Positions 3,001-25,303 of a stretch of 34,992 nucleotides of DNA are shown here, in pieces (position 1 is the stretch's first letter; each line of letters begins with the position of its first letter). The stretch spans positions 1-34,992 of the forward strand of contig DASTDQ010000725.1 in assembly GCA_035710305.1 (NCBI GenBank), written 5' to 3'. Under the pieces are notes generated by a model. That model had not been told where the DNA came from, ran no database searches, and was given only the letters and a program-made list of their open reading frames with translations. Both the position numbers and the translations under genes were made by a program. The DNA is from Vicinamibacterales bacterium (GTDB lineage: Bacteria; Acidobacteriota; Vicinamibacteria; Vicinamibacterales; UBA2999).

Positions 3001-6000
3001 AGCACATGGGCTTTCGTCTCGGGGAGGCCTGCTGAGAGGCGATCCTCGGTCACCAGCACATCGATCCTCGCGTCAGCCACCATGAACGCGAGCCGCTCGG
3101 GCGGGTGTACAGGATCGAGCGGTACGTACGCCCCACCGGCCTTGAGGATGCCGAGTATGCCGACCACTAACTCGATCGACCGCTCCATGTACAGCCCGAC
3201 CAGGACCTCCGGACCCACGCCCAATGACCGCAGGTGGTGTGCCAGCTGATTCGCACGGGTGCTCAGTGCGCCATACGTGATCTGGTGTCCGTCCAGGATT
3301 ACGGCCACCCGATCCGGAGTCCGCACGACTTGCCGCTCGAACCACTCGTGCAGGCACATGTCGGTGGCGTAATCGACCGTCGCGTCGTTCCACTCCCGCA
3401 GTTGCCGGGCTCGCTCGTCCGCACTGAGGAGCGGTATCTCCGAAATCCGCCGCCCGGCGTCGGTGACCATGCCTTCCAGCACGGCGACGAAATGCCCCGC
3501 CATTCGTTCGATTGTCGACGCGTCGAAGAGATCGGTGTTGTACTCGAGGACGCCGTAGAATCCGCCCGGCGACTCGGCAAGATTGAGGGTCAGATCGAAC
3601 TTCGCCGTCTTCTGCTCGACCTCGACCGGCGACATCGAGAGCCCGGCGACCTCCACACCTCCCGCCGGCGCGTTCTGGAGCGCGAACATCACCTGGAACA
3701 GCGGGGTCCGGCTCAAGTCCCTCGGGACATCCAGCTCGTCGAGAAGCTTCTCCAGCGGGAGATGCTGGTGGGCGTACGCATCCAGGGCGGTATCCCGGAC
3801 CTGCGTCACGATCTCCCGGACGCTTGGGTCGCCGGCGAGATCCGCACGCATGACGAGCGTATTGACGAAGAGTCCGACGAGGTTTTCCGTCTCGGTTCGA
3901 CTGCGGCCAGCGATGGGCGTCCCGACCAGGATGTCGTCCTGTCCCGTGTAACGGAACAGCAGACTGAAGAAGCCCGCCAGGAGCGTCATGAACGGCGTGG
4001 CGCCCTGCGTGGCGCTCAGGGCCCGCACCGCCTCGCTCAACTCCTTCGAGAGCGTGACCGGCCGGCTCGCGCCGCGGAACGACTGGACAGGCGGACGCGA
4101 GCGGTCGGTGAGCAGCTCGAGCGATTGGGGCGCCCCTGAAAGGCGGTTTCGCCAGTATCCGAGCTGCTGGTCGAGTGCCCCGGCATCGAGCCACTGCCGT
4201 TGCCAGACCGCCACGTCAACATACTGAACATTCAGATCGGCCAGCGGCGAGGTTTCACCGCGGGCGAACGCCGCATAGATCCTGGACAGTTCGCCAATCA
4301 CGATCCCCATCGACCATCCGTCCGAGACGATGTGGTGAATCGTCAGCAAGAGGACGTGCTCGGACTCGGCGAGCGTTGCCACCGTCGCTCGCATCAACGG
4401 GCCCCTGGTCAGATCGAACGATCGATTGGCCTCATCGGCAGCGAGGCGCAGCGCCTGGGTCGTTCTCTCGGCGTCCGGCAGCGCGCTCAGATCGACGACC
4501 GCGAGCGCTCCAGGTGTTGCTGCACCGATGTCCTGCCGAGGACCGTCTTTACCAGTCGCAAACCGGGCGCGGAGGATCGCGTGCCGTCTGAGAATCTCGT
4601 CCACAGCGTGCGACAACGCAGCGAGGTGGAGCGGCCCCTTCAGCCGCACCGCAGACGGAATGTTGTAGGCCGCACTACCAGAGTCCAACCGATCCAGGAA
4701 CCAGAGCCGCTCCTGGGCGTGTGAGAGTGGCAGATCGACATCCCGGCCAACCGGAGACAGCGGTATCTCCAACTGGTGGTCGCCGTCTGTCAGCAAGCGC
4801 TCGACGTAGCGGGCCTGCCCAGCCACCGTCGGCTCGTCGAAGACTGCGCGAAGCGGGTACTCGACGTTGAAGAGCGCGCGAACTCTCGACACCATACGAG
4901 TCGCGAGCAGGGAGTGGCCGCCCAACCGGAAGAAATCGTCCCGGACACCGATTGTCTCGATGCCCAACACTTCTGACCAGAGGGCAGCGAGCGCGCGCTC
5001 GGTTGGTGTGCGCGGTGGCTCGAACGCGTCGAGTTCGGTGCGACTCTGATCGGGTTCAGGCAGCGCCCGCCGATCGACCTTTCCGTTGGGTGTGAGCGGC
5101 AGCGCGTCCAGCGTGACGAACCTGGCCGGCACCATGTAGTCGGGAAGACTCGCCCTCAGGAAATCTCTGAGGGAAACAACGCTGTCCGCCGTCGCGAGAT
5201 CGCCCACCACGTACGCCACCAGCTGCACGTCCCCGGACACCTCACGCGGCTCGACAGCGCACGCCTCCACTAAGACATGCCGCTCCAAAACGGCTTCTAT
5301 CTCTCCCGGCTCGATCCGGTGCCCCCGTACCTTCACCTGTCGGTCAGCGCGACCGAGATGCTCGAGCGTCCCGTTGGGCCGCCATCGCGCCAGATCGCCG
5401 GTTCGATAGAGACGTGCGCCGGCGGCGCCGCTCACGTGGTCCGGGACAAACGGCCCGGCGGTCAGATCGGGTCGTTGCCAGTAGCCCGCCGTCACGCCGG
5501 CGCCTCCGATGTACAGCTCGCCAGCTACTCCCACGGGCGCGGGTTCGAGCTGGCGGTCCAGGACGTACACCTGAGTATTCGCGATGGGCCGTCCGACCGT
5601 AATCGGCGCGCTGCTCGCGACGGGCCCGCACGTCGACCAGACTGTCGTCTCGGTCGGGCCGTACATGTTCCAGAGCGCGCCGACACAGGCGTTCAGACGA
5701 TCGGCCAGCGCGGCCGGCAGCGGCTCTCCGCCGCACAGCACGGTCAGTCCGCGCGCCCCCGGCCAGTTGGCTTCGAACAGGAGACGCCATGTCGCCGGTG
5801 TCGCCTGCATGAGGGTGGCGCCCGACCGCGAGATCGCTGCCTCCAGTTGCTGGCCGTCGCTCACCGTCGCTGCCGCCGCCACCCACACCCGCGCACCCAC
5901 TGTCAGGGGCAACAACAGCTCGAGCACGGAAATATCGAACGAGTGCGTCGTCACTGCGAGCAGCAGGTCGTCAGCCGCGAGCCCTGGCGTGCGTGCCATG

Positions 6001-9000
6001 CTCGCGAGAAAGTTCGTCACGCACCCATGCGGCACGCACACGCCTTTCGGTCGGCCCGTGGATCCGGACGTGTAGATCACATACGCCAGCGCCGTCGGGC
6101 CGACCGCCAACGACAGATTCTCCACGGACTCGGTCTCGCCCGCGGACGTCACTGCGCCGATATGCACGACGGCCGTGCCCTCGGGCACCATCGAGGCGAA
6201 GGCCTTTCCGGTCACCACCGCAGCCGCAGCCGAGTCTTCGAGCATCAACCTGACTCGGTCGGTGGGATACGCGGGGTCGACGGGCACATACGCAGCTCCC
6301 GCCTTGAGCACACCAAGGATCGCCACGACGAGGTCTGCCGACCGTTCGAGCCAGATCGCCACTCGCACGCCGGGACCGACACCCAGATCTCTCAGCCGGC
6401 GCGCCAGACGGTTCGCCTGCGTGTTGAGTTCCCGGTAGCTGAGCGTCGTCGTCTCCGCAACGACGGCCACCGCATCGGGTGTCCGTGCGACCTGCGCTTC
6501 GAACACCTCGGGAATCGTCGCCGACGGAGGCGCGGTCGCCGTGTCGTTCCACTCGACGAGCAGCCGTGCACGTTCGTCAGCGTTCAGCAGCGGCAATGCC
6601 GAGACGCGCGCGTCGGGGTTCGCGACGACGCCCGCGACCAGTGCCTGGAAGTGCCCCGCCATCTGCTGGATCGTGGCGGCATCAAACAGATCCGGGTTGT
6701 ATTCGAGCGCCCCCACGATGCCTTTGCGCGACTCGAAGAGGCTCAACGCCACGTCGAACTTCGAGGTCCCCTGTTCGACGACGACCGGTGCCAGCGAGAC
6801 GTCCCGAATGTGCAGCGCAGCCGCGGGTACGTTCTGAAGCGCGAACATCACCTGGAACAGCGGCGTGCGGCTCAAGTCCCGTTCCACCTTCAGCTCGTCC
6901 ACCAGCCTCTCAAACGGCACGTCCTGGTGCGCGTATGCCCCGAGCGCGGTCTCCCGGACCTGTGCCAGCAACGCGCGGAACGACGGGTCAGAACCGAGTT
7001 CCGCCCGCAGGACCAGCGTGTTGACGAACAGCCCGATCATCCCTTCCGTCTCGGCACGCGTGCGTCCCGCGATCGGCGTCCCGACAAGCACATCCGGCTG
7101 GCCCGCGTACCGATACAGCAACGTCTGGAAGACCGCCAGCAGCGTCATGAACAGCGTCGCGCCCTCCCGCCGACTGAGCGCTCCCAGCGCCGCCGCCGTT
7201 TCGGTCGAGATCTCGACTGGCACGCTTCCACCGGCAAAACTCTGAACGGCCGGCCGCGGTCGATCCGTGGGCAGCTCGAGGACGCGCGGCGCGCCCGCCA
7301 GCCGTGTCCGCCAGTAGGCGAGCTGCGCGTCCATGGCGCCGCCGGCCAGCCAGTCGCGCTGCCAGACGGCGTAGTCGGCGTAGTGAAGCGTGGGTTCCTG
7401 CAACCGCGAGGGGCGCCCGTCGATGAATTCCTCGTACAGCGTGCCCACCTCGCCGACCAGGAGTCCGGCCGACCATCCGTCGGTCACGATGTGATGCGCG
7501 GAGAACAGCACCATGTGATCCGCGTCCGACAGACGCACCACGATGGCCCGCACCAGGGGCCCGGTTGCCAAGTCGAACGGCCGCTGAGCGGCTTGCGTGG
7601 CCAGCCGGCTCACTGTCTCGTGACGGGCATCCGGCGCAAGACGACTCAGGTCCGCCAGCTCGATCGAGATCCTCGAGACCGGGGTAATGCGCTGCACGGG
7701 GCGGCCTTCGCCGTCTCGCCCGACGACAGCGCGCAGGCCCTCGTGCCGTCGTATGACCTCACGGTACGCGGCCGCGAACGCGGCGAGGTGTAGCGGGCCG
7801 GTGAGTCGCAGCGCACTGGGCACGACATACGCGCTCCCTCCCGGCTCGAGCTGGTCGAGGAACCACAGGCGCTCCTGGGCGTATGAAAGCGGCGCATCCC
7901 CCTCACCGTCGCGCCTGGCCATCGGCGGCGCGACTGGCGTGGCCTCTCCTTGATGCGCTGCCTCGATCACCCGGGCGAAAGCGGCGACCGTCGGCTGCTC
8001 GAACAGCGTCCGCAGCGGTAGATCGACGCCGAACAGCGCCCGCACACGCGCCCCCACCTGGGTCGCCAGCAGTGAATGCCCCCCGAGCTCGAAGAAGTCG
8101 CTGTGCGCACCCACCTGCGGAACGCCCAGCACGCTCGCCCAGACATCGGCGAGGATCTCTTCCATCGGGCTCCGTGGCGCCACGTAGGTCGACTCGATCG
8201 CCTGAGGCTCCGGCGCCGGCAGCGCCCGTCGGTCAACCTTGCCGTTCGGTGTCAGGGGCAACGCGGCCAACGTCACGAACGTCGTCGGCACCATGTAATC
8301 GGGGAGCCGGTCCTTCAGCGCCTCGCGCAGGGCGCCGCCGCTGGCCGCGGCGGCTCCCTCGGCCGCCACGACATAGGCCACGAGACGGTCGTCACCCGGG
8401 GCTGCGGTGTACACGACGACGACCGCGTCTCCGATGCCGGGCTGCTGTCGCAGGACCTCTTCGATCTCCCCCAGCTCGATGCGGAACCCCCGCAGCTTCA
8501 CCTGATCGTCGATGCGTCCCAGAAACTCCAGCTCGCCGTCGGAACCGTGGAAGCTGAGATCTCCCGTCCTGTAGAGGCGCTCCCCGGGCAGCTCGCTGAA
8601 CGGATGGGGCACGAACTTCTCGGCGGTCAACTCCGGGCGTTTCAGGTAGCCTCGACCCAGGCCAGCCCCACCGATGTAGAGCTCGCCCGCGATACCCACT
8701 GGCGTCGGCTGCATGCGGCGATCGAGCACGTAGAGCTGCGTATTGATGATCGGCCGGCCAATCGCGACGGCACCGGAGGTCGGCGTGTCTTCGGACACTT
8801 CGTAGACGCAGCACCCGACGACGGTCTCCGTCGGACCGTACTCGTTGATGAGTCGCGTTCGCGGCGCGTGGGTCCTCCAGAAGTCGATGTCGGTCGCCGT
8901 CAGGGCCTCACCGCCGATGACGAAGGCCCGCGTGCCTCCCGCCGCTTGCTCCGGAGGGATCGTCGCGGCAAGCATCTTCAGGTGAGCCGGCGTGAGCTTC

Positions 9001-11126
9001 ACCAGTCCAAAGTCGCTACCCGAGGCCAGGGCCTCACCGAGCGCCTCGACCTCGCGCGCTTCCGGCAGGAGCACCACGCGTCGTCCGGCGATGAGCGGTG
9101 AGATCAGGCTCGTGATGGTCGCATCGAATCCAAGCGAGGATTGCACCGGGGCCCCACTCCCCTCGGCGAGGGGATACGTCCGCGTGCACCAGTCAAGATA
9201 GTTCGCTACGCTCGCATGCTCGATCATCGTCCCCTTGGGCCGTCCGGTCGACCCTGAGGTGTACATCACGTACGCCAGATGGCGTGGCGTCACGTCGGTT
9301 CGACGATTCACGGTGTAATCGGCGTCGTCCCGCCCACCGTGATCGACGCATTCCACCGTGGCCGAACCGGCAGCAATCTCCTCGCGCAGGTGTTCCTGTG
9401 TCAGGACAAGCTCAGCCCCACAGTCCTCGAGCATGTACTGCAGACGCTGTTTCGGGTAGTCGCGAGGCAATGGTACGTACGCGCCACCGGCCTTGAGGAC
9501 GCCCAGGATGGCGGCCAACATCTCCGGGCCTCGCTCCATGAACAGGCCCACCAGCGCGTTGGGCTTCACTCCGAGTTCCGCCAGACGAACAGCCAGCCGA
9601 TTGGCCCAGCGATCCAATACCGAATACGTCACCGACCGGTCTTCGAAGACCAGGGCCACCGAGTCGGGAGTCTTAGCCGCCTGCTCCTCGAACATCTGAT
9701 GAACGCAACGCGGGCCAGTGAGCGACACCTGCGTGTCATTCCAGTCGACCAGGAGTTGCTGGCGCTCCGCCGTGGTCAACATCGGGATGTCGTCGATGCG
9801 CGGATTGGCGTCGCTCAGCAGGCCGTCGAGCAGCATCTCGAGGTGCGCCAGCATTCGCCCGACGGCCGCCGCGTCGAAACGGCTGCCGTCGTAGTCGATG
9901 CGCAGCGACAATCGCTCGCCCGGGCCAACGACCACTATGAGCGGATAGTTGGTACGCGACTCGGCCACATCCTCCCGAACCGCCAGTCCGCCCGCATTTC
10001 CGTCCGAAAAGGGCCGCACGGGGTAGTTTTCGAAGACGAACGCACTCTCGAAGAGCGGAGTCGCCGACGGCACGCCGCTCCAGCGTTGAATGTCGACGAG
10101 AGACGCGTACTCGTACTCGCGTTGTTCGACCTGCTGGCGCTGAATGCTCGTCAACAAGGAGAGCACGGGCACATCTGCCAACACTCGCGCGCGCACGGGC
10201 AGCATCGTGATGAACAGACCGACCATCGATTCAGAACCACTAAGGTCGGCCGGACGACCCGACGATGTGGTGCCGTAGACGACGTCATCGGTGCCGCCAT
10301 AACGGCTCAGGAGGATCGCCCAGGCCCCCTGCACGACCGTATTGAGCGTCAGGTTGTGGCGGCGAGCGAACGCCTGCAGCGCGGCTGTCCTGGCCGCGGA
10401 GATCTGGACGCGTTCGCTGCCGAACGCTTCTCGCGTCCCGACAGTCGCACGGCGTCGGTTGACTCCGAGCGGCGTCGGGGCCTCGAACCCCTTGAGCCTT
10501 TCACGCCAGAAGGTCTCGGCCGCTGTCGGGTTCCGTGCCATGAGCCAGGCGACGAAGTCCCTGAAAGGCCGTGGCGGTGGCACTTGTGGCTCGACGCCGC
10601 GGCGCAGTGCGTCGTAGAAGACCTGCACTTCGTGCAGCACGACAGCGACGCTCCAGCCGTCCAGGAGCACGTGATGGAACGTCCAGAAAAACCTGTAGGC
10701 GTCCTCCGACAGCCGGATGAGCGCCATTCGCATCAGCGGCGCGCGATCGAGTCGAAGCGGTCTCTGCCGCTCCTCAGCGACGAAATCAGCAAGACGGGCT
10801 TGGTGTTCTGCCGCAGGCACCTCGCGCCAGTCCTCGTTGATCCACGGCAGGTCCACGCGCGACCGCACCAGCTGCAGCGGCCCCTTCTCGCCTTCCAACG
10901 CAAACGCCGTGCGCAGCACGGCATGCCTGTCGACCACGAGCTGCCACGCGCGCTGGAACGCGGCCGCATCGAGCTTCCCTTCGATCGTGTAGCCGAGCCG
11001 TTCGACATAGACGCCGGACTCCGGCGAGTACAGAGTGTGGAACAGCAGGCCACGCTGGAGCGGCGTCAGCGGATAGATGTCCGCGACCCTCCCTCGCGTA
11101 GCCGGCGATTTCGACGGACGCGTCAC
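1..11126 (-). CDS. NRPS-4, 3'-truncated by the window edge (at least 3708 codons): C(DCL-like)-A(Asn code)-T-C(LCL)-A(Gly code)-T-C(LCL)-A(Thr code)-T(GGDS)-C''(divergent)-A(start only)
   Basis: Not in the supplied ORF track: there is no in-window stop and the frame runs off the left edge. From my own reverse-complement reading, GTG at 11126-11124 directly follows the TGA (11129-11127) of the upstream gene. Motifs found, in order: [18 protein letters not shown] (~11090-11040); HHVLLDGWS (10676-10650); [11 protein letters not shown] (~9270-9235); FDATIT / VKLTPAH / FVIGGE / [12 protein letters not shown] (~9130-8800; 10-residue code DATKVGEVGK, Asn-like); DFFELGGHS (Ser codon 8075-8073); [11 protein letters not shown] (~7890); HHIVTDGWS (7496-7470); SFDISVLE / MQATPATW / LCGGE / [11 protein letters not shown] (~5925-5640; DILQLGMVWK, Gly-like); [10 protein letters not shown] (Ser 4913-4911); [11 protein letters not shown] (~4720); HHIVSDGWS (4337-4311); FDFSVWE / LNQTPSAF / VVFGGE / [11 protein letters not shown] (~2775-2440; DFWNVGMVHK, Thr-like); NFFELGGDS (Ser 1706-1704); [13 protein letters not shown] (~1490-1450); [11 protein letters not shown] (1100-1068); and a C-A linker plus A start, LLEEWNDT...[17 protein letters not shown], down to nt 3. 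All checkpoints share one frame (codon first bases = 2 mod 3). Every listed minus-strand ORF inside 1-11126 is in a different frame. I did not verify every codon. Confidence 0.9.
   Translation of the reverse strand, partial: [3708 protein letters not shown]
190..1500 (-). other. C'': divergent DCL-clade-like condensation domain following a GGDS-type carrier domain (no E domain in between)
   Basis: [46 protein letters not shown] (~1540-1420) and [11 protein letters not shown] (1100-1068). The E-domain signature TPIQxWFF is absent. Boundaries are approximate. Confidence 0.7.
5100..8305 (-). repeat. Diverged intra-cluster duplication, copy 1: (A-end)-T-C(LCL)-A(Gly) unit, paralogous to 16000-19233
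   Basis: The proteins align closely. Example 1: [66 protein letters not shown] versus [66 protein letters not shown]. Example 2: [35 protein letters not shown] versus [35 protein letters not shown]. By eye the DNA of 8095-8310 and 19021-19240 is about 80-85% identical. The end points are approximate. Confidence 0.6.
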
Positions 11127-12893
11127 TCAGTACCTCCAGCTGCTCGGATCCGCCCCCGGGGGAGCCGTTTCCTTGATGCGCTCGAGAATCCGGGGCACGT
11201 ACATCTGGACGTAGCGTAGTTGGCTGTAGGCAATTCCGCGTTCGTGGTCGCCGTTCCAGCAATGCTCCGCGCGGTCCCCGTAATCGACGACGCCGGCGTA
11301 GGGGGGAGTCGCGGACTTCAGAAACTGCTCTGTCAGGTACACCGCGTTGTTCAGGTAGTAGTTGTCCATGTCTCCGACGTAGATATGGAGCTTCCCCCGG
11401 AGCTTCGGGCCGAGAGTGGACCAGTCGCGCCGCAGGATCCAGGAGAGGTCGTAGTTCTCCTTCCAGTAGTCCGCCACACTTCTATCGATCGCCCCCGTGC
11501 GTTTGTCCCAGATGGGCCGGGGATAGCCGTCGTTCCCCACGGGGGAGTAGACGGCCTGCCAGATGTCCCATTGACCGCCCGAGCGGCCCCGGCTTGCGAG
11601 GGCCAGCTCGAGATGGTTCAACTGCTCGAGCGTGCCGCTCACATGGCCGAGATAGTTGCGGCGCCCGGGACGGGGTGTCCGGCGGAACGGTCCGTCGATC
11701 CAGTAGGCGTTGGCGTCCTCGTAGAGGTTCACCACGGTGTAAGCCCGGAAATCGATCGGATCAGGGCAGGCAACGAACGCGCCGTTGTACTGGTCCGGAT
11801 AGAAGACCTGCGCCGCCATCGCCTCCCACCCGCCGGTGGATCCGCCGTAGAGGAACCGGGCCCATCCCTCTCCGATCCCTCGAAACTGCTTCTCGATGTA
11901 AGGAATCAACTCGTGGGTGATTGCGTCTCCGTACGGTCCGAGGTTCGCCGAGTTCACGGCGTAGGAAGCGTCGTAGTACGGATTGGCGTGCTGGATCTGC
12001 ACGACCAGCATGCGCGGAAAGCCCGGGCTGATCCAATCCTTGTACAGCGCGTACGCCGCCTCCTCTCGCACGCGGTTGTAGCAGTCCACGCCGTACCGGG
12101 CGTTGTACACGCACGGGGCCTTCTCGTCGGGCGGATCGGTGCGCCAACCATCGAAGTCTCTCGTGAAGTGACCGTGAAAGACGGCCAGCGGATAGCGAAC
12201 CTCCGGGTGCTCTGCGTAGCCGGCCGGGAGCAGCACGTGAGCTCCCAGATAGACATCCGTGCCCCAGAACTTTGACAACAGCGTGCTCTTGATGCGCACG
12301 TGCTTCACCCACGGCGTGTCTTTCGGCGGATCGAGCGGCGGAATCGTCTGATCGAGGGTCAACTCGACCACGTCGTCCTTTGCAGGATCCACGCGCCGCT
12401 CGATCGGCAGCGAATAGAGATTGCCCGGCTTCCTCGCCCACTGCTGCCCCTCTCCCATGTCCGGCGGCAGCGACACCGTATGGCCATCGGCGCGTGTGTA
12501 GGTTCGATAGCGGTTGAGCAGCGCCTGCACGCGATAGTTCCCGGGGGGCAGCCCTGCGAGGCCGGACACGGGATACCCGAATGCCGCCCCGTCAACCGTT
12601 CGCCTGCTGCCCGGCATCCAGCTCTCTACGTCCACACCAAATACCTGGGCAGACTGAGGGCCGTCGTTCACCTGGAACCTCGGCTCACCGGCGGCAGCCG
12701 CGGATACCAACACGAGAAGGCGGCCCTGGAGCGCTTCGCGGGCCGCACCGTCAGGCAAAGTGATCGTGAATTTCAGCGAGGTCTCCGACGCGACAACCTG
12801 AGACAAGGGCACGTCGGGGCCCGTCGCACGTCCGCATCCGGCAGCCAAAGCGATGCACGGCACCGCCGCTCGAAGGATCGCCGGGGCTCTCAC
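11127..12893 (-). CDS. Exported lipoprotein, alpha/beta-hydrolase esterase (esterase-D / enterochelin-esterase-like 'putative esterase' type)
   Basis: The track ORF is 11127-13019. My preferred start is GTG 12893-12891, 19 nt after the SGNH stop; the longer ORF would overlap the upstream gene by 107 nt. From that start the protein reads VRAPAILRAAVPCIALAAG|C, a lipobox with its Cys codon at 12836-12834. The nucleophile elbow is LYGGSTGGW (Ser codon 11840-11838). GDMDNYY and AEHCWNGDH further on are candidate Asp/His. The family assignment is from memory of the GxSxG context (FHGHF..., GGSTGGWEA...YPD.Y), not from a search. Confidence 0.85.
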   Translation of the reverse strand: MRAPAILRAAVPCIALAAGCGRATGPDVPLSQVVASETSLKFTITLPDGAAREALQGRLLVLVSAAAAGEPRFQVNDGPQSAQVFGVDVESWMPGSRRTVDGAAFGYPVSGLAGLPPGNYRVQALLNRYRTYTRADGHTVSLPPDMGEGQQWARKPGNLYSLPIERRVDPAKDDVVELTLDQTIPPLDPPKDTPWVKHVRIKSTLLSKFWGTDVYLGAHVLLPAGYAEHPEVRYPLAVFHGHFTRDFDGWRTDPPDEKAPCVYNARYGVDCYNRVREEAAYALYKDWISPGFPRMLVVQIQHANPYYDASYAVNSANLGPYGDAITHELIPYIEKQFRGIGEGWARFLYGGSTGGWEAMAAQVFYPDQYNGAFVACPDPIDFRAYTVVNLYEDANAYWIDGPFRRTPRPGRRNYLGHVSGTLEQLNHLELALASRGRSGGQWDIWQAVYSPVGNDGYPRPIWDKRTGAIDRSVADYWKENYDLSWILRRDWSTLGPKLRGKLHIYVGDMDNYYLNNAVYLTEQFLKSATPPYAGVVDYGDRAEHCWNGDHERGIAYSQLRYVQMYVPRILERIKETAPPGADPSSWRY

Positions 12894-12912
12894 GCCGATT
12901 GATGTCCTCAGC

Positions 12913-14241
12913 CTACCGATCGTGGTCGTACAGTTGGTCGTAGAGTGCCTTTGCGATGAGGGTGTGGCCCAACGCATTAGGGTGAAGCCGATCCCACCCT
13001 GCGATGACCAGTTGGTCATATCCCGCTGCTTCGAAGGAACCTTCCAGTCGAATCACTTCGAACCCCGCCCGCGTCGACTCGTGCTCGACAATGTCGTAGA
13101 TCAGCCGATACGTGCTCTCGTACCTCTTCTCTTCCACCAAGTAAGGGACGATCACCACCAGCACCCGGAATCCATGCTGGCGCTGCAGCCTGCCGAGTTC
13201 TCCAAGGGCGTATCGCAGCTTGCCGATCCTGGCATGAGACAAGTAGTTCGCGACACGGAACCGGGATGCAGCGGAACCATTCGTCTCCATTTCAGTCTTC
13301 AGGCGGCTCATGATTGCGCCCAGTTCCGCGTCACCTGTCGTGTCAGCGATGTAGTCCCTGTTGTCGGCGGCGAAATTGGCCTCGAGGTTGGCGCGCATGT
13401 TGTCTCGACCGAGCCCGGCAGTGTCCAGGCGCGACCTGACGAACTGGAAGAGCCGGATTCTGTAGATCGGCGACCCGTATCTGCGCGCCCTCAGAATGTA
13501 CTCGACGTTGGTACTGGCGACTTCCACATCGTTCACGACATAACCGACCACGACGACGTCTGGCTTGTACTGAATGCCGATGTCCTTCAGCGTCGCGACC
13601 TCCTGCAGCGTATCGTAGCCGCCGAGAGCCATATTCAGGACCTCGACGGCGCGGCCCTTTTGACGCAGCATGTCGTCTAACCGTCTCGCAAAAGACTCGT
13701 TGGGTCCCAGGGAGTTGCCGAACGCCACTGAGTCGCCGACGACGACGACGCGGCTGGTGCCGGCGGGCTTTTGCAGTTCGTACTCCCTGTCCCTGAATCC
13801 GCGGGAATTGATCCTGACGTGGGTGCCCCATGCATACCCTTCCGCAAATGGCGTCGCCTCGTAGATTCGCTCCTTGACCGACGACGGCCGCAGAATCAGC
13901 TCTCGCCCGTTTGCCAGTTCTCCGAAAGGGTTGTAGTCGAACACGCGCAGGACGGCCTCGATGACCAACAACGGCGTCACGATGGACGCCAGAAGAAGAA
14001 CGGCCTCGCCTCTCCCTGGAACCTTCACCGAGAGCCGGATGGAGTGACGCCTGACGACCAGATACGCCCCGAGCGCCACCAACACGATCTGCGCCACGGC
14101 GATACCGGCAAGCATCGTGGAATTGGCTATGTGGTGGTCGGACACGAAGGCCGCTTCGATGACCCACTTGTTGAACAGGACGCCCGTCGCGATCGACAGG
14201 CCTCCCAAGCAGAGCATCGCCGTATGTCGTTGTACCTTCAT
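12913..14241 (-). CDS. Membrane-anchored SGNH/GDSL-family hydrolase (3 N-terminal TM segments, catalytic domain predicted outside the membrane)
   Basis: 442-aa ORF starting at ATG 14241. Hydrophobic segments lie at aa ~8-28, 43-63 and 80-100, with a basic N-terminus (MKVQRH) and a basic loop (RRHSIRLSVKVPGRGE) between TM2 and TM3. All four SGNH blocks are present: I VVVVGDSVAFG (GDS at 13737-13729), II MALGGYD, III VVGYVVNDV, V WDRLHPNALGH (DRLH at 12993-12982). Confidence 0.88.
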   Translation of the reverse strand: MKVQRHTAMLCLGGLSIATGVLFNKWVIEAAFVSDHHIANSTMLAGIAVAQIVLVALGAYLVVRRHSIRLSVKVPGRGEAVLLLASIVTPLLVIEAVLRVFDYNPFGELANGRELILRPSSVKERIYEATPFAEGYAWGTHVRINSRGFRDREYELQKPAGTSRVVVVGDSVAFGNSLGPNESFARRLDDMLRQKGRAVEVLNMALGGYDTLQEVATLKDIGIQYKPDVVVVGYVVNDVEVASTNVEYILRARRYGSPIYRIRLFQFVRSRLDTAGLGRDNMRANLEANFAADNRDYIADTTGDAELGAIMSRLKTEMETNGSAASRFRVANYLSHARIGKLRYALGELGRLQRQHGFRVLVVIVPYLVEEKRYESTYRLIYDIVEHESTRAGFEVIRLEGSFEAAGYDQLVIAGWDRLHPNALGHTLIAKALYDQLYDHDR

Positions 14242-14280
14242 GACGCCGGGGTGGAGTGACGATCGAACGGACCGGAACGG

Positions 14281-17200
14281 TCAGTATTCCTGGCCCTGGA
14301 GCAGTCGGTCGAGCGTGGCCTGATCGAGGTCGGCGAGAGGGAAATCCGAGGGAGATGCGCCGCCCGCATCTGGAGACAGGCAGTGCGCGATGATGCCCCG
14401 AAGAGCATCGGCGATACCGTCGACCAGCCCCTGCATCGTCGCGCGCGCGTGCACGTTCTCGCTGTACTGCAGCGAGAGCTGGAGCCGACCGTCGACGATG
14501 ATCCCGGACACCTCCATCAGATGGCGGGGCCGGGCTCGAGGGCTCTGCGCTGGACCGCTGGACCCGGTCGCAAAGCGGAACGGCGTGTTCGCTGCGAGCG
14601 TCTGGTCGAACCGACCGAGGTAGTTGAAGATCACTTCTGCCGGCGCATCCCCGAGTTGGGCGATGCGGGCCGGCTCGCTGTAGCGAAGAAGCCCGTAGCC
14701 GATGCCCCGCTGTGGAATCTGCCGAAGCTGCTCCTTGATCGCCGTGAGTGCGCTCCCCGGATCCTCTTTCGCAGGCAGCTCGAGCCGCACGGGGAAGATC
14801 GTCGTGAACCACCCGACGGTCCGGGACACGTCGAGATCATCGAACGGCGACTCGCGCCCGTGTCCTTCGAGATCGACGACCAGCGCCCGCGATCCCGTCC
14901 ACGGGGCAAACGCCTGCAGCAGCGCGGTGAGCAGGACGTCGTTGATCTGGGTGCCGTAGGCCTCGGGGACCTCGGTGAGCAGCGCGTGCGAGTCCTCCTC
15001 GGTCAGCGTGGCCGACACGACCGCCCGGGAGGCGATCGTGTTGGGTCCGTCCGTGCGGTCCACGGGCAGCCGCGGCGCCTCGCCTGTCACCTGCTGCTGC
15101 CAGTACGCCACTTCCTCGTTCAGCGCTCCGCTCTGAACGTACTCGTACAACTTCCGTGCCCAGTGCTGGAGGGCCGTCGTCTTCCGCGGCAGCGTCGCCG
15201 ACACCCCCCGGATCGCCTGGTCGTAGGCGGTCAACAGGTCTTCGAGCAGAATCCGCCACGACACGCCGTCGACAACCAGGTGGTGAGCGATGAGGAATAC
15301 ACGATCCGGCTCGTCGCCGCATGCGAAGTGACGCACGTGGAAGAGCGGCCCACGGCCAAGGTCGAAGCTCGTGTGAAGCGCTTCGATCTGGCGGGTCATC
15401 TCGGCGGATCGCTCGGCCGGAGCGAGGGAGGACAGATCCACCGTCGAGAACGGAGATCGTCCGTCAGGCGTCATGCTCTCCTGATGCCATTCTCCGTCCC
15501 GCAGCTCGAAGCGGTGGCGGAGCGCGTCGTGATGGAGGAACAGTGACGCGACGCTTTGGCCCAGGCATGCCGGATCCAGCCGCGCGCGGGCCTCGAGCAA
15601 CAGGGCCTGATTGAAGTGGTGAGGCTCGGCCGGGGGAGACTCGAAGAACCACCGTTGGATGGGCGTCAGGGCCACGGCTCCGGTCACCGCCCCCTGCTCC
15701 GCCGCCACTTCGCCCACTCCCGCCACGGCGGCGAGCTCGGCGATTGTCTGATGCTCGAAAATCTGCCTTGGCGTGAGCCGCAGACCCGCTTCGTTCGCGC
15801 GGGCCACGATCTGAATCGCGAGGATCGAGTCCCCGCCCACGTGGAAGAAGCTGTCGTGCACGCCGAGCTGGTCCACCCCAAGCACACGAGACCAGATCGC
15901 CGCCAGCGTCTTCTCCCTGGGGTCGCGCGGCGCGATGAAGGCCGTCTCCAGCTCCGGCCTCGATTGCTCCGGAGCCGGAAGCGCACGACGGTCGATCTTC
16001 CCGTTCGGGGTGAACGGCCAGGCATCGAGCGTCACGAACGCCGCCGGAATCATGTACTCGGGCAGCGAGGCTCTGATGTGCCTCTGAAGCTCGGTGACGC
16101 TCAGGGGCTGGTCCCCGCTCGCCAGCATGTAGGCCACCAGTCGCGTGTGGCCCGGCGCGTCTTCCCTCGCCACGACCACGGCATCCCGGATCGACTGGTG
16201 CTGGCCCAGCACGGTCTCCACCTCACCGAGCTCGATCCGGTGGCCTCGGATCTTCACTTGATGGTCGATCCGGCCGAGGAACTCGATCCGACCGTCCGGC
16301 CGATACCGCACGCGGTCTCCGGTGCGATAGAGTCGCGATCCTCCGGCCACATCGAAAGGATTCGGGACGAACCGCGCCGCTGTCTCGTCCGGGCGTTTAC
16401 GGTACCCGCGTGAGACGCCAGCCCCGCCGATGTGAAGCTCGCCGGGCACGCCGATCGGGAGCAGTCTGGTCTCCCGATCGAGCACGTACACCTTGGTGTT
16501 GGCGATCGGATGCCCGATCGAGGTCGGCGCGTCACGGTCCTCTACGTGGTCGAGCGTCGACCAGACCGTGGTCTCCGTCGGACCGTACATGTTCCAGACC
16601 GATCGAGCGCCGGACAGCAGCCGGCTCGCAAGATCCTGCGAGAGCGCCTCACCGCCGCAGAGCGCCTTCAGTGACGCGCCGCCCGACCACCCGTTGTCAA
16701 GCACCAGGCGCCATGTCGCCGGAGTTCCCTGCATGGCCGTGGCCTGGTGGCGTTCGACGAGCGCAGCCAGCTGCCCGCCGTCGCGCACGTCATCGGGACC
16801 TGCGACGACCAGTCGGGCCCCGGTGGTGAGCGGCAGAAGCAGTTCGAGCACGGAGATATCGAACGAAATCGTCGTGACCGACACGAATGTGTCGTCGCGA
16901 TCGAGTCCGGGGACCGCACGCATGGTTTCGAGGAAGTTCACGACGGAACCGTGCGCGATCTGCACGCCCTTCGGGCGGCCGGTCGAACCGGACGTGAACA
17001 TCACGTACGCCAGGTTGCGGGGATCGAGACTGTGAGAGGCACTGCAGTCTGCCGTCGGCGCGTTGGCCGGCCAATCGGCGTCGATGCGAAGGACCTGGAC
17101 GTCTGCTCCAAACCGGTGTGCCAGGTGGGCCTGTGTGAGAACGAGCGCCACGTCGGCATCCTCGAGGATCACTCGAAGACGCTGCTCGGGATACGACGGG

Positions 17201-20200
17201 TCGAGAGCAACGTAAGCGCCGCCCGCGTTGAGGATCCCGAGCATTCCCACGACGAGATCGAGGGACCGATCCAAACACAGTCCGACGCGCACCTCCGGCC
17301 CGACGCCGACACTCTGCAGATAACTCGCCAGCCGGGCCGCCCGGTCGTCGAGCTGCCGGTACGTCAGTTGCCGCCCCTCGAACACGACCGCGACAGCGTC
17401 CGGCGTCAGGGCGACCTGTGCCTGGAACACATCGGGAATGCACGCATCGCTCCGGTACATCTCCTCCGTCGCGTTCCAGGTCTCCAGCAACTGCGTGCGT
17501 TCTGCCGTTGAGAGCAGCTCCAGCGTGGCGACCGGACGCGTGGGCTCGGCGACAGCCGCCTCGAGCAGCTGGGTGAAGTGCCCGACCATCCGCCGGATCG
17601 TCGCCGCGTCGAACAGATCCGAGCTGTATTCCAACGTCCCCCGAATTCCCGATGGCGATTCCGCCAGGCTCAGGGTCATGTCGAATTTCGACGTCGCTTG
17701 CTCGATTTCTACCGGCAACAAGGACAGGCCGGGAAGCGACAGGGTTTCGGTGGGCGTGTTCTGCAGCGCGAACATGACCTGAAACAGCGGCGTGCGACTC
17801 AAGTCCCGTTCCACTTCCAGCTCGTCCACCAGTTTCTCGAACGGCAGGTCCTGATGCGCGTAGGCCCCCAACGCTGTTTCGCGTACCTGGGCCAGCACGT
17901 CCCGGAACGTCAGTGCTCCATCGAAGTCTGCGCGCATGACCAGTGTGTTGACGAACAGCCCAATCAGCCCCTCGGCTTCCGCGCGCGTGCGCCCGGCGAT
18001 CGGCGTCCCGACGAGGACCGTCTTCTGACCCGAGTACTTGTAGAGCAGCGTCTGGAAGGCGGCCAGCAGCGTCATGAACGGCGTCACGCCTTCGCGACGG
18101 CTCAGCACCTGAAGTGCTTCGGACAGATCCTTGGCGATGCTGACCGGCTCACTTGCACCGGCGAGGCCCTGGAGTGGTGGCCTGGGCCTGTCGGTCGGCA
18201 GCTCGAGCAACCCGGACGCACCCGCCAGTCGATCGCTCCAGTAAGAGACCTGCGCGTCCATCGCGCCGGCGTCCAGCCAGTTCCGCTGCCAGACTGCGTA
18301 GTCCGCATACTGAATGGGCGGCTCCGCAAGTGGCGAGGGGTGGCCGGTGATGAACGCTGGATACAGCGTCGTGAGCTCCCGCACGATGAGTCCCATCGAC
18401 CACCCGTCGGTGACGATGTGGTGCGCCGAGAACAGCGCGACGTGGGTCTCGTCCTCGAGCCGAAGCACGGTCGCCCGCACCAGCGGCCCGGACGCCATGT
18501 CGAATGGGCGCCTGGCCATGAGCAGGGCCAGCCGGCGCATTTCCTCTTCGCGCGCAATCGGGGCGAGAGAGCTGAGATCGACGAACTCGAGGGCGATCGA
18601 CTCGCCATCGGTGATGCGCTGTTCGCCGCGCCCGTCACCCGTTGTGACGATTACCGTGCGCAACGATTCATGGCGCCGGACGACCTCGCGGTAGGCAGCC
18701 GCGAACGAGGCCACATGGAGCGTTCCCGTCAGCCGCAGCGCGCTGGGTACGACATACGCGCTCCCGGAGGGCTCGAGCTGGTCGAGGAACCACAGACGTT
18801 CCTGGGCGAAAGAGAGCGGAGCGCTGCCGCGGTCGACGCGACGGTGTATCGATGGAGCGCGAACGACCGCGCCTCCTTGTTTCGCCGCTTCCACCTGCGC
18901 AGCCAGTCCTGCGACCGTCGGGTGCTCGAAGAGCGTGCGCAGCGGGAGATCGACTTCGAACACCTGTGCGACGCGGCTCATCACCCGGGTCACCAGCAGC
19001 GAATGCCCGCCGAGCTCGAAGAAGTCGCTTTGCACGCCGACCTGCGGCACACCCAGCACGCTCGCCCACACGTCGGCGAGGATCTCTTCCACCGGGCTCC
19101 GCGGCGCCACGTGGGCCGATTCGAGCGCCTGGGTCTCCGGCGCCGGGAGGGCCCGGCGGTCGACCTTGCCGTTCGACGTGAGGGGCAGGGCATCCAGCGC
19201 GACGAACGCCGCCGGCACCATGTAGTCGGGCAACGACGTCTTCAGAAAATCTCTGAGCTCGGTCACTCCCGGCGGTTCCGCCTCTGCCACCGTGTAGGCG
19301 ACGAGCCTCACCTGGCCCGGCGTGTCCTCGCGCGCGACGACGGCCACCGCCCGCAACGCCGGGTGTCGGCTCAGGGCCCCTTCGATCTCCCCCAACTCAA
19401 TGCGGAAGCCTCGAATCTTCACCTGATGATCCCGCCGCCCGAGATACTCCATTTCGCCGTTCGGCAGGTAAAGCCCCAGGTCTCCCGATTTGTACAGGCG
19501 TGCTCCGGCCGGGCCGCCAAAGGGATGTGGAATGAACCGTTCCGCCGTGAGCTCCGGCCGATTGAGATAGTTCCGAGCCAGTCCCGCTCCGCCTACGTGC
19601 AGCTCGCCAGGCACACCGACCGGCAGCAGTCTCATACCCGAATCAACGAGATACGTCTGCAGAGTAGGAATCGGCACGCCGATGTTGCTGCCGTCCTTTT
19701 CGAGATCCTCAGCCTCGAGACCCTTGAACGTCACATGAACGGTGGTTTCAGTAATCCCGTACATGTTGACGAGCTTCACATCTGGGTATGCCCGGTTCCA
19801 CGGCTGTAACTGCCTTGGGGCCAGTGCCTCGCCGCCGAAAATGATGTAGCGCAGGGCCACGCTCGTCCTTCGCTGGCTCAGCGCGTGGTGCATGAGCTGC
19901 TGGAAGGCGCTCGGTGTCTGGTTGAGAACCGTCACCTCCTCGGACAGTATGAGACCCAGAAACTGCTGCGGATCCTTGTTGACGCCTTCCGAGACGATGA
20001 CCAGTCTGCCTCCATAGAGCAGGGCGCCGTACATCTCCCAGACGGAGAAGTCGAAACAGTAGGAGTGGAACACCGACCACACGTCTTCTTCCGTGAACGC
20101 AAACTGCATGTGGTCGTTGACCATCAGCCGGACCACCTGCCGATGCTCGAGCAGAACGCCCTTGGGTCTTCCGGTCGACCCCGATGTGTAGATGCAGTAC

Positions 20201-25289: not shown

Positions 25290-25303
25290 GTAATGCTGTT
25301 ACC

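Follow-up and report, generated by a model that had tools for sequence, protein, structure and literature searches.

Two genes with hydrolase folds lie on the minus strand in the middle of a series of NRPS genes, and the question was whether they belong to the synthetase pathway and what they could do there. The window, i.e., the whole stretch of DNA that was analyzed, has a length of 34,992 nt. A sequence-only reading had placed the two genes, encoding an SGNH/GDSL protein (SGNH) and an esterase-like lipoprotein (EST), at a split E-C boundary between NRPS-3, which ends with an E domain, and NRPS-4, which starts with a C domain. Both the coordinates and the termini were reproduced (Table 1), and both genes were found to be intact. 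The N-terminus of NRPS-4 is VTRPSKSPATRGRVADIYPLTPLQ, and its first domain is indeed a C domain (RVADIYPLTPLQ, HHVLLDG); behind it come A-T-C-A-T-C-A-T-C and further domains. The uninterrupted version of the E-C linker, which had been noticed inside NRPS-1, was located at residues 558-590 of this partial protein (ADFPLADLDQRTLDTLLGDDSRIEDIYPLSPLQ).

Table 1. Features of the region from NRPS-3 to NRPS-4; positions are those of the window.
Feature	Position	Strand	Remarks
NRPS-3	14281..23394	-	3037 aa; C-C-A-T-C-A-T-E; C-terminus is the E-domain end ...SDFPLADLDQATLDRLLQGQEY and stop
NRPS-3/SGNH gap	14242..14280	-	39 nt, NRPS-3 stop to SGNH ATG
SGNH/GDSL membrane-anchored protein	12913..14241	-	442 aa; coordinates include the stop codon
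SGNH N-terminal membrane region, residues 6-100	13942..14226	-	three predicted helices, the first weakly hydrophobic
SGNH catalytic domain, residues 160-437	12931..13764	-	GDS, G208, N237, DxxH; helical insertion at about 245-356
SGNH/EST gap	12894..12912	-	19 nt, SGNH TAG to EST GTG; GAGGA inside
EST (lipoprotein esterase-like)	11127..12893	-	588 aa; GTG start at 12893, TGA stop; coordinates include the stop codon
EST lipoprotein signal peptide, residues 1-20	12834..12893	-	MRAPAILRAAVPCIALAAG followed by C; PROSITE-type lipobox
EST all-beta N-terminal domain, residues about 40-202	12288..12776	-	AF2 secondary structure; arrangement similar to CBM48-plus-CE1 in 7b5v and 6rzo
EST alpha/beta-hydrolase domain, residues about 215-576	11166..12251	-	S352, putative D510, putative H544
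Shine-Dalgarno-like GGAGG	11133..11137	-	within the EST 3' end, 6 nt in front of the GTG of NRPS-4
NRPS-4	3..11126	-	GTG start at 11126; >3708 aa, reading frame still open at the window edge

The junctions were as tight as had been described. The TGA of EST directly abuts the GTG of NRPS-4, as read from the sequence, and the gap in front of SGNH would be 63 nt instead of 39 nt with the start at Met9 (434 aa) that a public annotation gives for the same gene. Neither terminator-like nor promoter-like sites were found in the SGNH and EST junction gaps, and GC3 was uniform over the genes. The placement of the GGAGG motif suggests that the translation of NRPS-4 is coupled to that of EST. SGNH and EST are genuine genes in an operon arrangement with the synthetase genes, and are probably co-transcribed with them. 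No transporter, thioesterase or starter module was present within the 35-kb window. The window also encodes a stand-alone A-T didomain protein, for which the NCBIfam matches to DltA stayed below the cut-off.

Profile searches revealed that the SGNH protein matches generic GDSL models only. Lipase_GDSL_2 (PF13472) scored 45.8 bits (cut-off 32.9) and covered residues 167-427, corresponding to profile positions 1-177 of 178, and the DltD, ALGX and DUF1574 models gave no match. The catalytic set comprises S171 in the GDS motif (codon 13731-13729), G208, N237 and D417-x-x-H420, representing blocks I, II, III and V, and each of these residues is either invariant in an alignment of 41 homologues or conserved there to at least 90%. 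The AlphaFold2 (AF2) model (pLDDT 85) showed the three-layer alpha/beta/alpha SGNH fold, and Foldseek matched it with a probability of 1.00 to EstL5, LAE5, TesA and Axe2 (TM-score (target) 0.6-0.79). The closest structural neighbors, e.g., TesA and Axe2, are hydrolases. SGNH domains beside MBOAT and DltD-like partners are often acyltransferases, and thus hydrolysis is not the only possibility; from its fold and catalytic residues the protein is predicted to be, possibly, either an esterase or an acyltransferase.

The sequence-only reading had assigned three transmembrane helices to this protein. Three helices were also present in the AF2 model (residues 6-33, 41-63 and 77-100), but only two hydropathy segments were strong (45-63 and 80-98), and the first one (10-28) was weak. 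The loop 64-79 is strongly basic and is predicted to be cytoplasmic, and, thus, the catalytic domain would face the periplasm irrespective of whether TM1 is inserted. This topology, which was derived from hydropathy and positive-inside heuristics only, agrees with the outside location that had been proposed. In about 150 relatives the N-terminus carries just one anchor, which aligns to TM3, and the two additional N-terminal helices were seen exclusively in cluster-linked homologues. Close homologues had identities of 98%, 81% and 63%; the latter two, the neighborhoods of which were examined, are situated in NRPS/PKS loci. Distant relatives occur in polysaccharide-type loci (L005).

For the EST, the assignment to an esterase-D-like family was likewise confirmed, and both Pfam assignments agree with the AF2 folds. 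In this case the score was marginal: the Esterase model (PF00756) reached 25.8 bits versus a cut-off of 22, with residues 321-376 alone aligned, and the homologue in locus L004 reached 22.4 bits. The AF2 model (pLDDT 84) had its best Foldseek matches to 8z91, 7b5v, 5vol, 7xrt and Ag85C, i.e., to CE1, feruloyl-esterase and antigen-85 folds. The nucleophile S352 is part of a GGSTGG motif (11846-11829). D510 (within 11375-11358) and H544 (within 11270-11256) are the putative acid and base, based on their positions after beta7 and beta8 and on their invariance; all three residues are invariant among 48 EST-family sequences. The lipobox LAAG in front of C20 fits the PROSITE PS51257-type pattern, which was found in all nine cluster-embedded homologues and in 31 of the 48 family members, while the remainder had signal-peptide-like N-termini. 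As the earlier reading had deduced from this motif, the EST is predicted to be exported and lipid-anchored, with its catalytic domain in the periplasm.

Conserved synteny of the two genes had been set beforehand as a test of the proposal, and this test had a positive outcome. A 3-TM SGNH protein and an EST of the cluster clade (see below) were found together in all six related NRPS/PKS loci with typable neighbors, namely the window, L167, L004, L001, L170/L171 and the P0008 locus. In L167 the SGNH protein and the EST are 81% and 84% identical to those of the window, respectively, and an NRPS-3 orthologue (80%) precedes the SGNH gene. The corresponding values are 63% and 78% for L004, and 28% and 84% for L001, where the SGNH architecture is the same as in the window. 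L170/L171 encodes a 394-aa 3-TM GDSL protein and an EST with 83% identity. In a seventh locus, P0003, a very large gene directly follows the EST gene. The gap between EST and the next gene is only 0-1 nt in five loci (window, L001, L170, P0008 and P0003), and in four of them the next gene encodes an NRPS. Around the pair, the synthetases share 42-80% identity and have acquired PKS modules; between clusters the EST retained 78-86% identity, in contrast to 42-80% for the synthetase domains and 28-81% for the SGNH partner. This recurrence across related clusters makes it very likely that both proteins are part of the NRPS pathway.

Further genes for extracytoplasmic transferases were detected in the sister clusters. 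In L170/L171 and P0008 an MBOAT gene adjoins genes for a DUF1574/DltD-like single-TM SGNH protein and a 3-TM GDSL/AlgX-like protein, and the SGNH proteins beside MBOAT had weak matches to the DltD, DUF1574 and ALGX models. An MBOAT gene is also found near the EST in P0003, and L167 and L171 encode multi-TM proteins that are weakly similar to GT-C proteins (TMEM260/ALG3). These neighbors indicate that extracytoplasmic chemistry is a theme of this cluster family. The 35-kb window contains no MBOAT, AT3 or GT-C-like gene.

The family of the EST is very large, highly conserved and uncharacterised; more than 8000 homologues were found, and the identity is 58-75% across Gemmatimonadota, Acidobacteriota, Bacteroidota, Planctomycetota, Proteobacteria and others. 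The sequence-only reading had named as contrary evidence that homologous clusters lack the two genes and that the closest homologues are housekeeping genes in unrelated contexts. The second point was indeed observed for the EST, because its nearest non-cluster homologues (68-75% identity) are of the housekeeping type, with the context YajQ-EST-PstS-PhoU, but homologous clusters do carry the pair. At 164 loci of family members with 58-75% identity neither NRPS domains nor the SGNH partner were found nearby. A conserved neighbor of the housekeeping family was not found either, the commonest gene being present at 12 of these loci; the neighborhoods contain S9 peptidases, sulfatases and beta-lactamase-like proteins. 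The cluster-embedded ESTs form one clade (50 of 50 NJ bootstraps) of paralogues, sister to syntenic Gemmatimonadota housekeeping genes, in spite of the divergence of the synthetases around them. Only five substitutions distinguish this clade from its housekeeping relatives (D56Q, F132Y, F267Y, E299Q and R558Q); all are mild, three of them neutralize a charge, and every invariant residue is kept. The housekeeping-type relatives and the absence of NRPS genes at the 164 loci thus point to a recruited, barely diverged paralogue.

The explanation that we favor, tentatively and with slightly less than even confidence, is that the two are accessory genes of an NRPS cluster from a Gemmatimonadota-like bacterium, and that the SGNH protein and the EST form the core, conserved among related clusters, of a module for extracytoplasmic acyl/ester processing that acts on the exported product. 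Up to three helices would anchor the SGNH protein in the inner membrane and leave its Ser-Gly-Asn-His domain on the periplasmic side, and the EST, exported and lipid-anchored, would carry a beta-sandwich followed by a CE1/esterase-D-type Ser-Asp-His domain. Once the peptide or a pro-form has been exported, an ester or acyl linkage on it would be made or cleaved by one or both of them. Candidate reactions are deacylation, release of an ester-linked group and lactone opening, and the SGNH domain might alternatively transfer an acyl group. Conjectural in this proposal are the periplasmic location, which comes from heuristics, the exported product as substrate, and whether a bond is formed or broken. 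In its favor are the recurrence of the pair, the 0-1 nt junctions behind EST, the single clade of cluster ESTs, the intact catalytic residues, the conservation of the export and anchor signals of both proteins within their families, the added transferases of the sister clusters, the gaps free of terminators and promoters, the uniform GC3 and the precedent of periplasmic IroE (PMC7403778). The five mild substitutions, which give no sign of a re-tooled EST active site, count against it, and so do the lack of a transporter, thioesterase and starter module in the window and of a conserved neighbor in the housekeeping family. A surplus C domain had been suggested to install the ester, but this idea is unsupported, because nothing ties the C domain to ester installation or shows an ester in the product.

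A barely diverged, recruited paralogue also opens a different reading, which was absent from the earlier one, namely self-protection. The cluster EST could be a resistant equivalent of a housekeeping lipoprotein esterase that is inhibited by the product (ARTS-type), or an immunity esterase by which product that re-enters the periplasm is inactivated; in that case the SGNH protein would have a separate role in tailoring or immunity. The unusual conservation and size of the EST family, the monophyletic paralogue clade with its unaltered invariant residues and few, partly charge-neutralizing changes, and the higher conservation of the EST between clusters than that of the synthetases or the SGNH protein would all fit. 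Duplication, cluster location and phylogenetic separation are also the ARTS criteria (PMC5570205). This reading would also call for a second, housekeeping copy in the same genome, outside the lone 35-kb contig, and for an essential family. However, the EST-family neighborhoods resemble nutrient scavenging rather than core physiology, and the obligate companionship with the 3-TM SGNH protein is left unexplained. We regard self-protection as unlikely.

Rather improbable is an action of the pair, together with the MBOAT, DltD-like and GT-C-like proteins of the sister clusters, on the cell envelope and not on a free metabolite. This judgement covers two variants jointly: a carrier-bound peptide or acyl group might be handed to a lipid or polysaccharide acceptor in a Dlt- or AlgI/J/X-like manner, or the envelope might be remodeled for product tolerance. 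The MBOAT and weakly GT-C-like neighbors described above, the sub-threshold DltA matches of the A-T didomain protein in the window and the polysaccharide-type loci of distant SGNH relatives are consistent with such a role. However, MBOAT and GT-C-like genes are missing from the window itself, the A-T protein is of a generic NRPS adenylation type, a precedent for an NRPS-MBOAT hand-off was not found in the literature, and systems of this kind are not known to include the esterase family.

The PF00756 family includes Fes, IroD and IroE. IroE is a periplasmic member that linearizes an NRPS trilactone, iron-free enterobactin (PMC7403778). If the cluster produced a (depsi)peptide metallophore, the EST might similarly free the metal or linearize the scaffold, like IroE, PfeE or Cee, and both its family and its predicted periplasmic location would be compatible with this. 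Yet Fes, IroE and PfeE chains were absent from the matches to solved structures when the single EST sequence was searched at E<=1, and also when a family profile was used with a limit of E<=10; the nearest structures were CE1/feruloyl esterases. In addition, genes for a TonB-dependent receptor, catechol or hydroxamate formation and hydroxylases were absent from the truncated window and from the examined sister loci, and a siderophore-type esterase is thus very unlikely. Least probable of all is that SGNH and EST are unrelated passengers between synthetase genes by chance: the wider EST family is overwhelmingly found outside of clusters, but at least six diverged cluster variants, differing in gene order, contain the pair, the downstream junction of EST is 0-1 nt in five loci, and the cluster clade is monophyletic.

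Several known systems can be compared with the pair. ClbP, XcnG and ZmaM are membrane-bound enzymes encoded in NRPS(/PKS) clusters, which act after export with a periplasmic catalytic domain; their fold is that of S12 beta-lactamases, their TM helices are at the C-terminus, and the bond they cleave is an N-acyl-D-Asn amide. In the pair, by contrast, the SGNH fold comes with TM helices at the N-terminus, and the other protein has a CE1/esterase-D fold. An identity of the ClbP/XcnG type was rejected, because neither protein matches the Beta-lactamase or Peptidase_S12 models, and no S12 protein is encoded in the window. PvdQ deacylates the pyoverdine precursor in the periplasm, and acyl removal from an exported NRPS precursor is also a proposed possibility for the pair; PvdQ differs in its Ntn-hydrolase fold and in its amide instead of ester chemistry, and is not homologous to either protein. 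With PvdQ and IroE (PMC7403778) as precedents, the earlier view that such a maturation or self-protection logic is undescribed was overstated. The EST shares with IroE, PfeE and Cee the Pfam family PF00756 and an association with an NRPS-product pathway, as well as a predicted serine esterase activity in the periplasm. In contrast, a sequence relationship is undetectable beyond the nucleophile-elbow region, and the EST differs from IroE by its length (about 585 aa, including insertions and a large beta-sandwich), by a lipobox anchor instead of a TM anchor, and by its origin from a huge non-siderophore family. Membership in the Fes/IroD/IroE subgroup was rejected, based on the lack of sequence similarity to solved members and of a siderophore context in the truncated window and the examined sister loci. 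DltD, AlgJ/AlgX, PatB and the OatA C-domain have an N-terminally anchored SGNH domain that faces outward, and the SGNH protein would resemble them if its domain is oriented as the heuristic topology predicts; the difference to MBOAT/AT3 systems is that the partner is absent from the window, while MBOAT is encoded in the sister loci P0008, L170/L171 and P0003. Finally, as judged from one contig, the EST resembles ARTS-type duplicated targets, being a phylogenetically separate duplicate clade of a conserved family that is located in the cluster.

The window represents the complete contig (34,992 bp), and its minus strand is almost wholly one synthetase operon, the genes of which are compiled in the table, together with the gene orders of the sister loci, i.e., loci with homologues of the esterase. 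NRPS-4 was missing from the list of open reading frames because the gene runs off the window. The stop codon of the A-T protein overlaps the start of NRPS-3 by 4 nt. The sequence-only reading had described the junctions around the membrane-anchored SGNH/GDSL protein (SGNH) and the lipobox-bearing esterase (EST) as very tight, and all distances were reproduced: 39 nt from the stop of NRPS-3 to the SGNH start, 19 nt from the SGNH stop to the EST start, and an EST stop that directly abuts the start of NRPS-4, with a GGAGG 6 nt upstream of this GTG. A scan of the junction gaps revealed no terminator-like or promoter-like sites. The proposal that an E-to-C linker is split at this position was likewise substantiated, as the end of NRPS-3 and the start of NRPS-4 both match the uncut linker at residues 558-590 of NRPS-1. 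The GC3 was uniform across the genes (0.77-0.85), and, thus, there was no sign of a recent separate acquisition of SGNH and EST.

Features of the synthetase operon in the window and of the sister loci
Feature	Sequence	Position	Strand	Description
NRPS-1, partial	window	34992..31840	-	
NRPS-1, C domain after E	window	32827-32847	-	motif at residue 716
NRPS-2	window	31821..27181	-	
Asparagine-synthase-like gene	window	27175..25307	-	623 aa; amidotransferase; TIGR01536, 465 bits
Stand-alone A-T didomain protein	window	25289..23394	-	632 aa
Asparagine-synthase-like and A-T genes	window	23391-27175	-	between NRPS-2 and NRPS-3
NRPS-3	window	23394..14284	-	C-C-A-T-C-A-T-E
NRPS-3, tandem C-like domains	window	20695-23394	-	residues 1-900
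SGNH	window	14241..12913	-	442 aa; between NRPS-3 and NRPS-4; ATG at 14241, TAG 12915-12913
SGNH, alternative starts	window	14217-14241	-	upstream ATG or Met9
EST	window	12893..11127	-	588 aa; between NRPS-3 and NRPS-4; GTG at 12893, TGA 11129-11127
NRPS-4	window	GTG 11126 to window edge	-	
Antisense open reading frames	window	9279-11219, 8076-9101, 11220-12275, others	+	
Sister locus	L001			NRPS (E end), methyltransferase-like, 3-TM SGNH-like (492 aa), AsnS-like, EST, NRPS/PKS
Sister locus	P0008 locus			NRPS, GDSL (400 aa), 554-aa protein, DUF1574-like GDSL, MBOAT, EST, NRPS
Sister loci	L170/L171			gene set of the P0008 locus, one gene inverted
Sister locus	L004			sulfotransferase, PKS/NRPS (...E-C), EST, SGNH
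Sister locus	L167			NRPS-3 orthologue, SGNH, 535-aa multi-TM protein, EST
Sister locus	P0003 locus			MBOAT, 632-aa protein, EST, gene of at least 1996 aa
Membrane/acyl-transfer genes	L170	1803-6040		directly upstream of EST
Membrane/acyl-transfer genes	L171	414-8016		directly upstream of EST
535-aa multi-TM protein	L167	8757-10364		between SGNH and EST

Two tandem condensation-like domains open NRPS-3, and their active-site motifs are degenerate (HHIVSDV at residue 135 and HHSAADT at residue 594); the surplus domain could be of a modifying, dehydrating or interface type. The A domain that follows them has the Thr-like signature fragments FDFSVWE ... VNMYGITETTV, and the same Thr-like signature is present again in the third module of NRPS-4. 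The A-domain signatures noted, Thr-like (FDFSVWE...NMYGITETTV) and FDISVLE-type motifs, are a rough reading and not rigorous Stachelhaus codes. In NRPS-1 the C domain after the E domain has SHMLLDG where HHxxxDG is the catalytic motif, i.e., the first His is replaced by Ser. Another asparagine-synthase-like gene adjoins EST in L001, and its product is 31 % identical to that of the window. The long plus-strand open reading frames antisense to the synthetase genes are spurious ones usual in GC-rich DNA and not genes; their translations are Arg-rich and of low complexity.

The folds that had been assigned to both proteins from the sequence alone, as well as the lipobox of EST, agreed with the results of the profile searches and structure comparisons. 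SGNH passed the Pfam profile Lipase_GDSL_2 with 45.8 bits, the four SGNH blocks are complete (S171, G208, N237, D417/H420), and the AF2 model has an SGNH hydrolase fold with a helical insertion of about 110 residues (pLDDT 85). The NCBIfam comparison of the pair yielded only matches far below the cut-off (the Leptospira LA_2490/LA_2486 GDSL families, TesA and GTNG_0744). The N-terminus contains two strongly and one weakly hydrophobic segment, and three helices (TM1 to TM3) were predicted by AF2. Regardless of an insertion of the first helix into the membrane, the catalytic domain is predicted to lie outside the membrane, because the loop 64-79 is basic. In an exhaustive search (E<=1e-30) 163 representatives were retrieved, nearly all with about 375 aa and one anchor that corresponds to TM3; the two extra N-terminal helices were confined to cluster-linked homologues. 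In the public annotation of the same contig SGNH starts at Met9 (434 aa, P0186) and not at the upstream ATG. The homologue in L004 favours the longer form of 442 aa, P0122 the shorter one, and neither start candidate has a clear Shine-Dalgarno motif.

In EST a lipobox of the PROSITE type (LAAG|C20) is followed by an all-beta N-terminal domain and then by the alpha/beta-hydrolase domain, in which S352 lies within GGSTGG and D510 and H544 are invariant. The Pfam profile Esterase (PF00756) was passed marginally and in the nucleophile-elbow region only, and the nearest folds are CE1/feruloyl esterases and antigen 85. PDB searches with the sequence and with a profile yielded generic esterases only and no Fes/IroE-type structure. 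Membership in the enterochelin-esterase subgroup was rejected, since neither sequence nor profile matched Fes or IroE.

The search for homologues of EST gave more than 8000 hits, of which the best 120 share 61-86 % identity with it along the full length. The family (P0002-P0120; L007-L166; about 585 aa) retains 58-75 % identity across phyla, including Gemmatimonadota, Acidobacteriota, Bacteroidota, Planctomycetota, Proteobacteria, Ignavibacteriales, KSB1 and others. About 150 columns are invariant, but the Pfam match extends over about 55 residues only, and the family appears to be without a characterised member.

All copies with 78-86 % identity to EST are embedded in NRPS or NRPS/PKS loci, and these sister clusters were obtained by exact-protein look-ups. 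The sequence-only reading had suggested searching homologous NRPS clusters for the pair, and it was indeed found: at least six cluster variants that have diverged from one another share the combination of a 3-TM SGNH protein and EST. This count includes the 394-aa GDSL protein of L171, which has three N-terminal hydrophobic segments, and the 492-aa protein of L001, both with weak homology to the SGNH of the window. The distance from the EST stop to the next gene start is 0-1 nt in five loci, and in four of them the next gene encodes an NRPS. Genome and metagenome scans served as the negative control. No NRPS C, E or A-T domains and no SGNH partner were detected in the available flanks of the 160 further EST loci listed, which stem from at least eight phyla and have 58-67 % identity among the matches listed; the downstream flank was at least 1.5 kb in 115 of the 164 non-cluster loci.

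In L170, L171 and the P0008 and P0003 loci extra membrane/acyl-transfer genes lie directly upstream of EST. They encode an MBOAT protein, a single-TM SGNH protein with weak DUF1574/DltD matches, a 3-TM GDSL protein with DUF459/ALGX matches, and a 9-TM protein of 554 aa. This set resembles the outward acyl-transfer sets of the Dlt/Alg type and is placed within an NRPS cluster; no description of such an arrangement was found in the literature. The 535-aa multi-TM protein of L167, the closest sister locus, has weak TMEM260-like/ALG3 (GT-C glycosyltransferase) similarity and is absent from the window. Near-identical copies from the 90 %-identity cluster of the window's EST are located on the contigs P0179 (122,972 bp), P0180 (64,853 bp) and P0184 (125,454 bp), on which the whole biosynthetic cluster is to be expected.

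The ESTs embedded in clusters grouped in one clade of a neighbour-joining tree (50/50 bootstraps), which also takes in four close relatives whose context is partly known at best. The sister group of the clade consists of syntenic Gemmatimonadota housekeeping genes. Copies with 68-75 % identity, likewise obtained by exact-protein look-ups, have a housekeeping-type neighbourhood in Gemmatimonadota genomes (sigma factor, YajQ, EST, PstS and PhoU). Five positions alone set the clade apart (D56Q, F132Y, F267Y, E299Q, R558Q), and every invariant residue of the family is kept. Between clusters the identity is 78-86 % for EST, compared to 42-80 % for the synthetase domains and 28-81 % for SGNH. The single clade, the five substitutions and the higher conservation suggest that a housekeeping paralogue was recruited one time and has changed very little since. 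For the housekeeping ESTs no function could be deduced from the neighbourhood, because none of the neighbours was conserved: after clustering of 908 neighbouring open reading frames from 164 loci, no neighbour was present in more than 12 loci, and among the neighbours were an S9 peptidase, an ABC exporter, a sulfatase, a Ser/Thr kinase and others.

For the pathway function of the pair we infer, as the most economical reading, an extracytoplasmic acyl/ester-processing module, which would process the exported product, or a pro-form of it, outside the cytoplasm. This reading draws on the conservation of the pair, on its probable translational coupling with the synthetase and on the outward-facing transferases of the sister clusters (MBOAT, DltD/DUF1574-like SGNH and GT-C-like membrane proteins). 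SGNH domains that are partnered with MBOAT proteins are commonly transferases, and the sequence would be compatible with hydrolysis as well as with acyl transfer. Alternatively, the product's target may have been duplicated, with EST as the resistant copy, or EST may serve as an immunity esterase. That EST has hardly diverged lends this explanation real weight, and the explanation fits the ARTS criteria for duplicated self-resistance targets (PMC5570205). The more specific form, that EST is a resistant duplicate of the widely conserved, uncharacterised periplasmic lipoprotein esterase and that NRPS/PKS products of a new class from Gemmatimonadota would thus have this family as their target, seems rather improbable to us. 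A third reading is that both proteins act on the envelope and not on the free metabolite. A role as siderophore esterase is unlikely, because the sequence and profile searches gave no similarity of EST to Fes/IroE and no uptake or chelator genes were found in the window or in the sister loci examined, and a status of both genes as mere passengers is contradicted by the synteny. An alternative of equal standing to the target form is that the 3-TM SGNH protein and EST, either alone or joined by MBOAT and GT-C proteins, may work as a trans-envelope module by which ester-linked decorations of the product are built or edited outside the cytoplasm.

Post-export processing and self-protection fix the real end product of a cluster and its expressibility in other hosts, and a cluster cloned without such steps may deliver no product at all, or else a pro-form or a toxic intermediate. 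The analysis defines an accessory pair, a 3-TM SGNH protein and a CE1-like lipoprotein esterase, that recurs in the NRPS/PKS clusters of a barely cultured phylum. The esterase apparently goes back to one recruitment from a family that is very large, strongly conserved and hardly covered by Pfam. This large orphan family deserves study in its own right. If EST were a resistant copy of the target, the family would gain a function and a ligand, and a target-guided handle on a new antibiotic would be available together with the function of a family of thousands.

The earlier view that a post-export logic of this kind is undescribed was too strong, because NRPS products are known to be processed in the periplasm, namely by the S12 peptidases ClbP and XcnG and by the Ntn acylase PvdQ. 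A further precedent is IroE, a periplasmic enzyme of the same Pfam family as EST (PF00756), which linearises the trilactones enterobactin and salmochelin (PMC7403778). For the pair of SGNH and EST in NRPS clusters no description was found in the literature. The combination of these two folds and the fact that it recurs appear to be new, and the same holds for the recruitment of a paralogue out of a lipoprotein family that is huge, strongly conserved and uncharacterised. If the maturation reading is true, a new extracytoplasmic ester/acyl route would extend the paradigms of ClbP, PvdQ and IroE to new folds.
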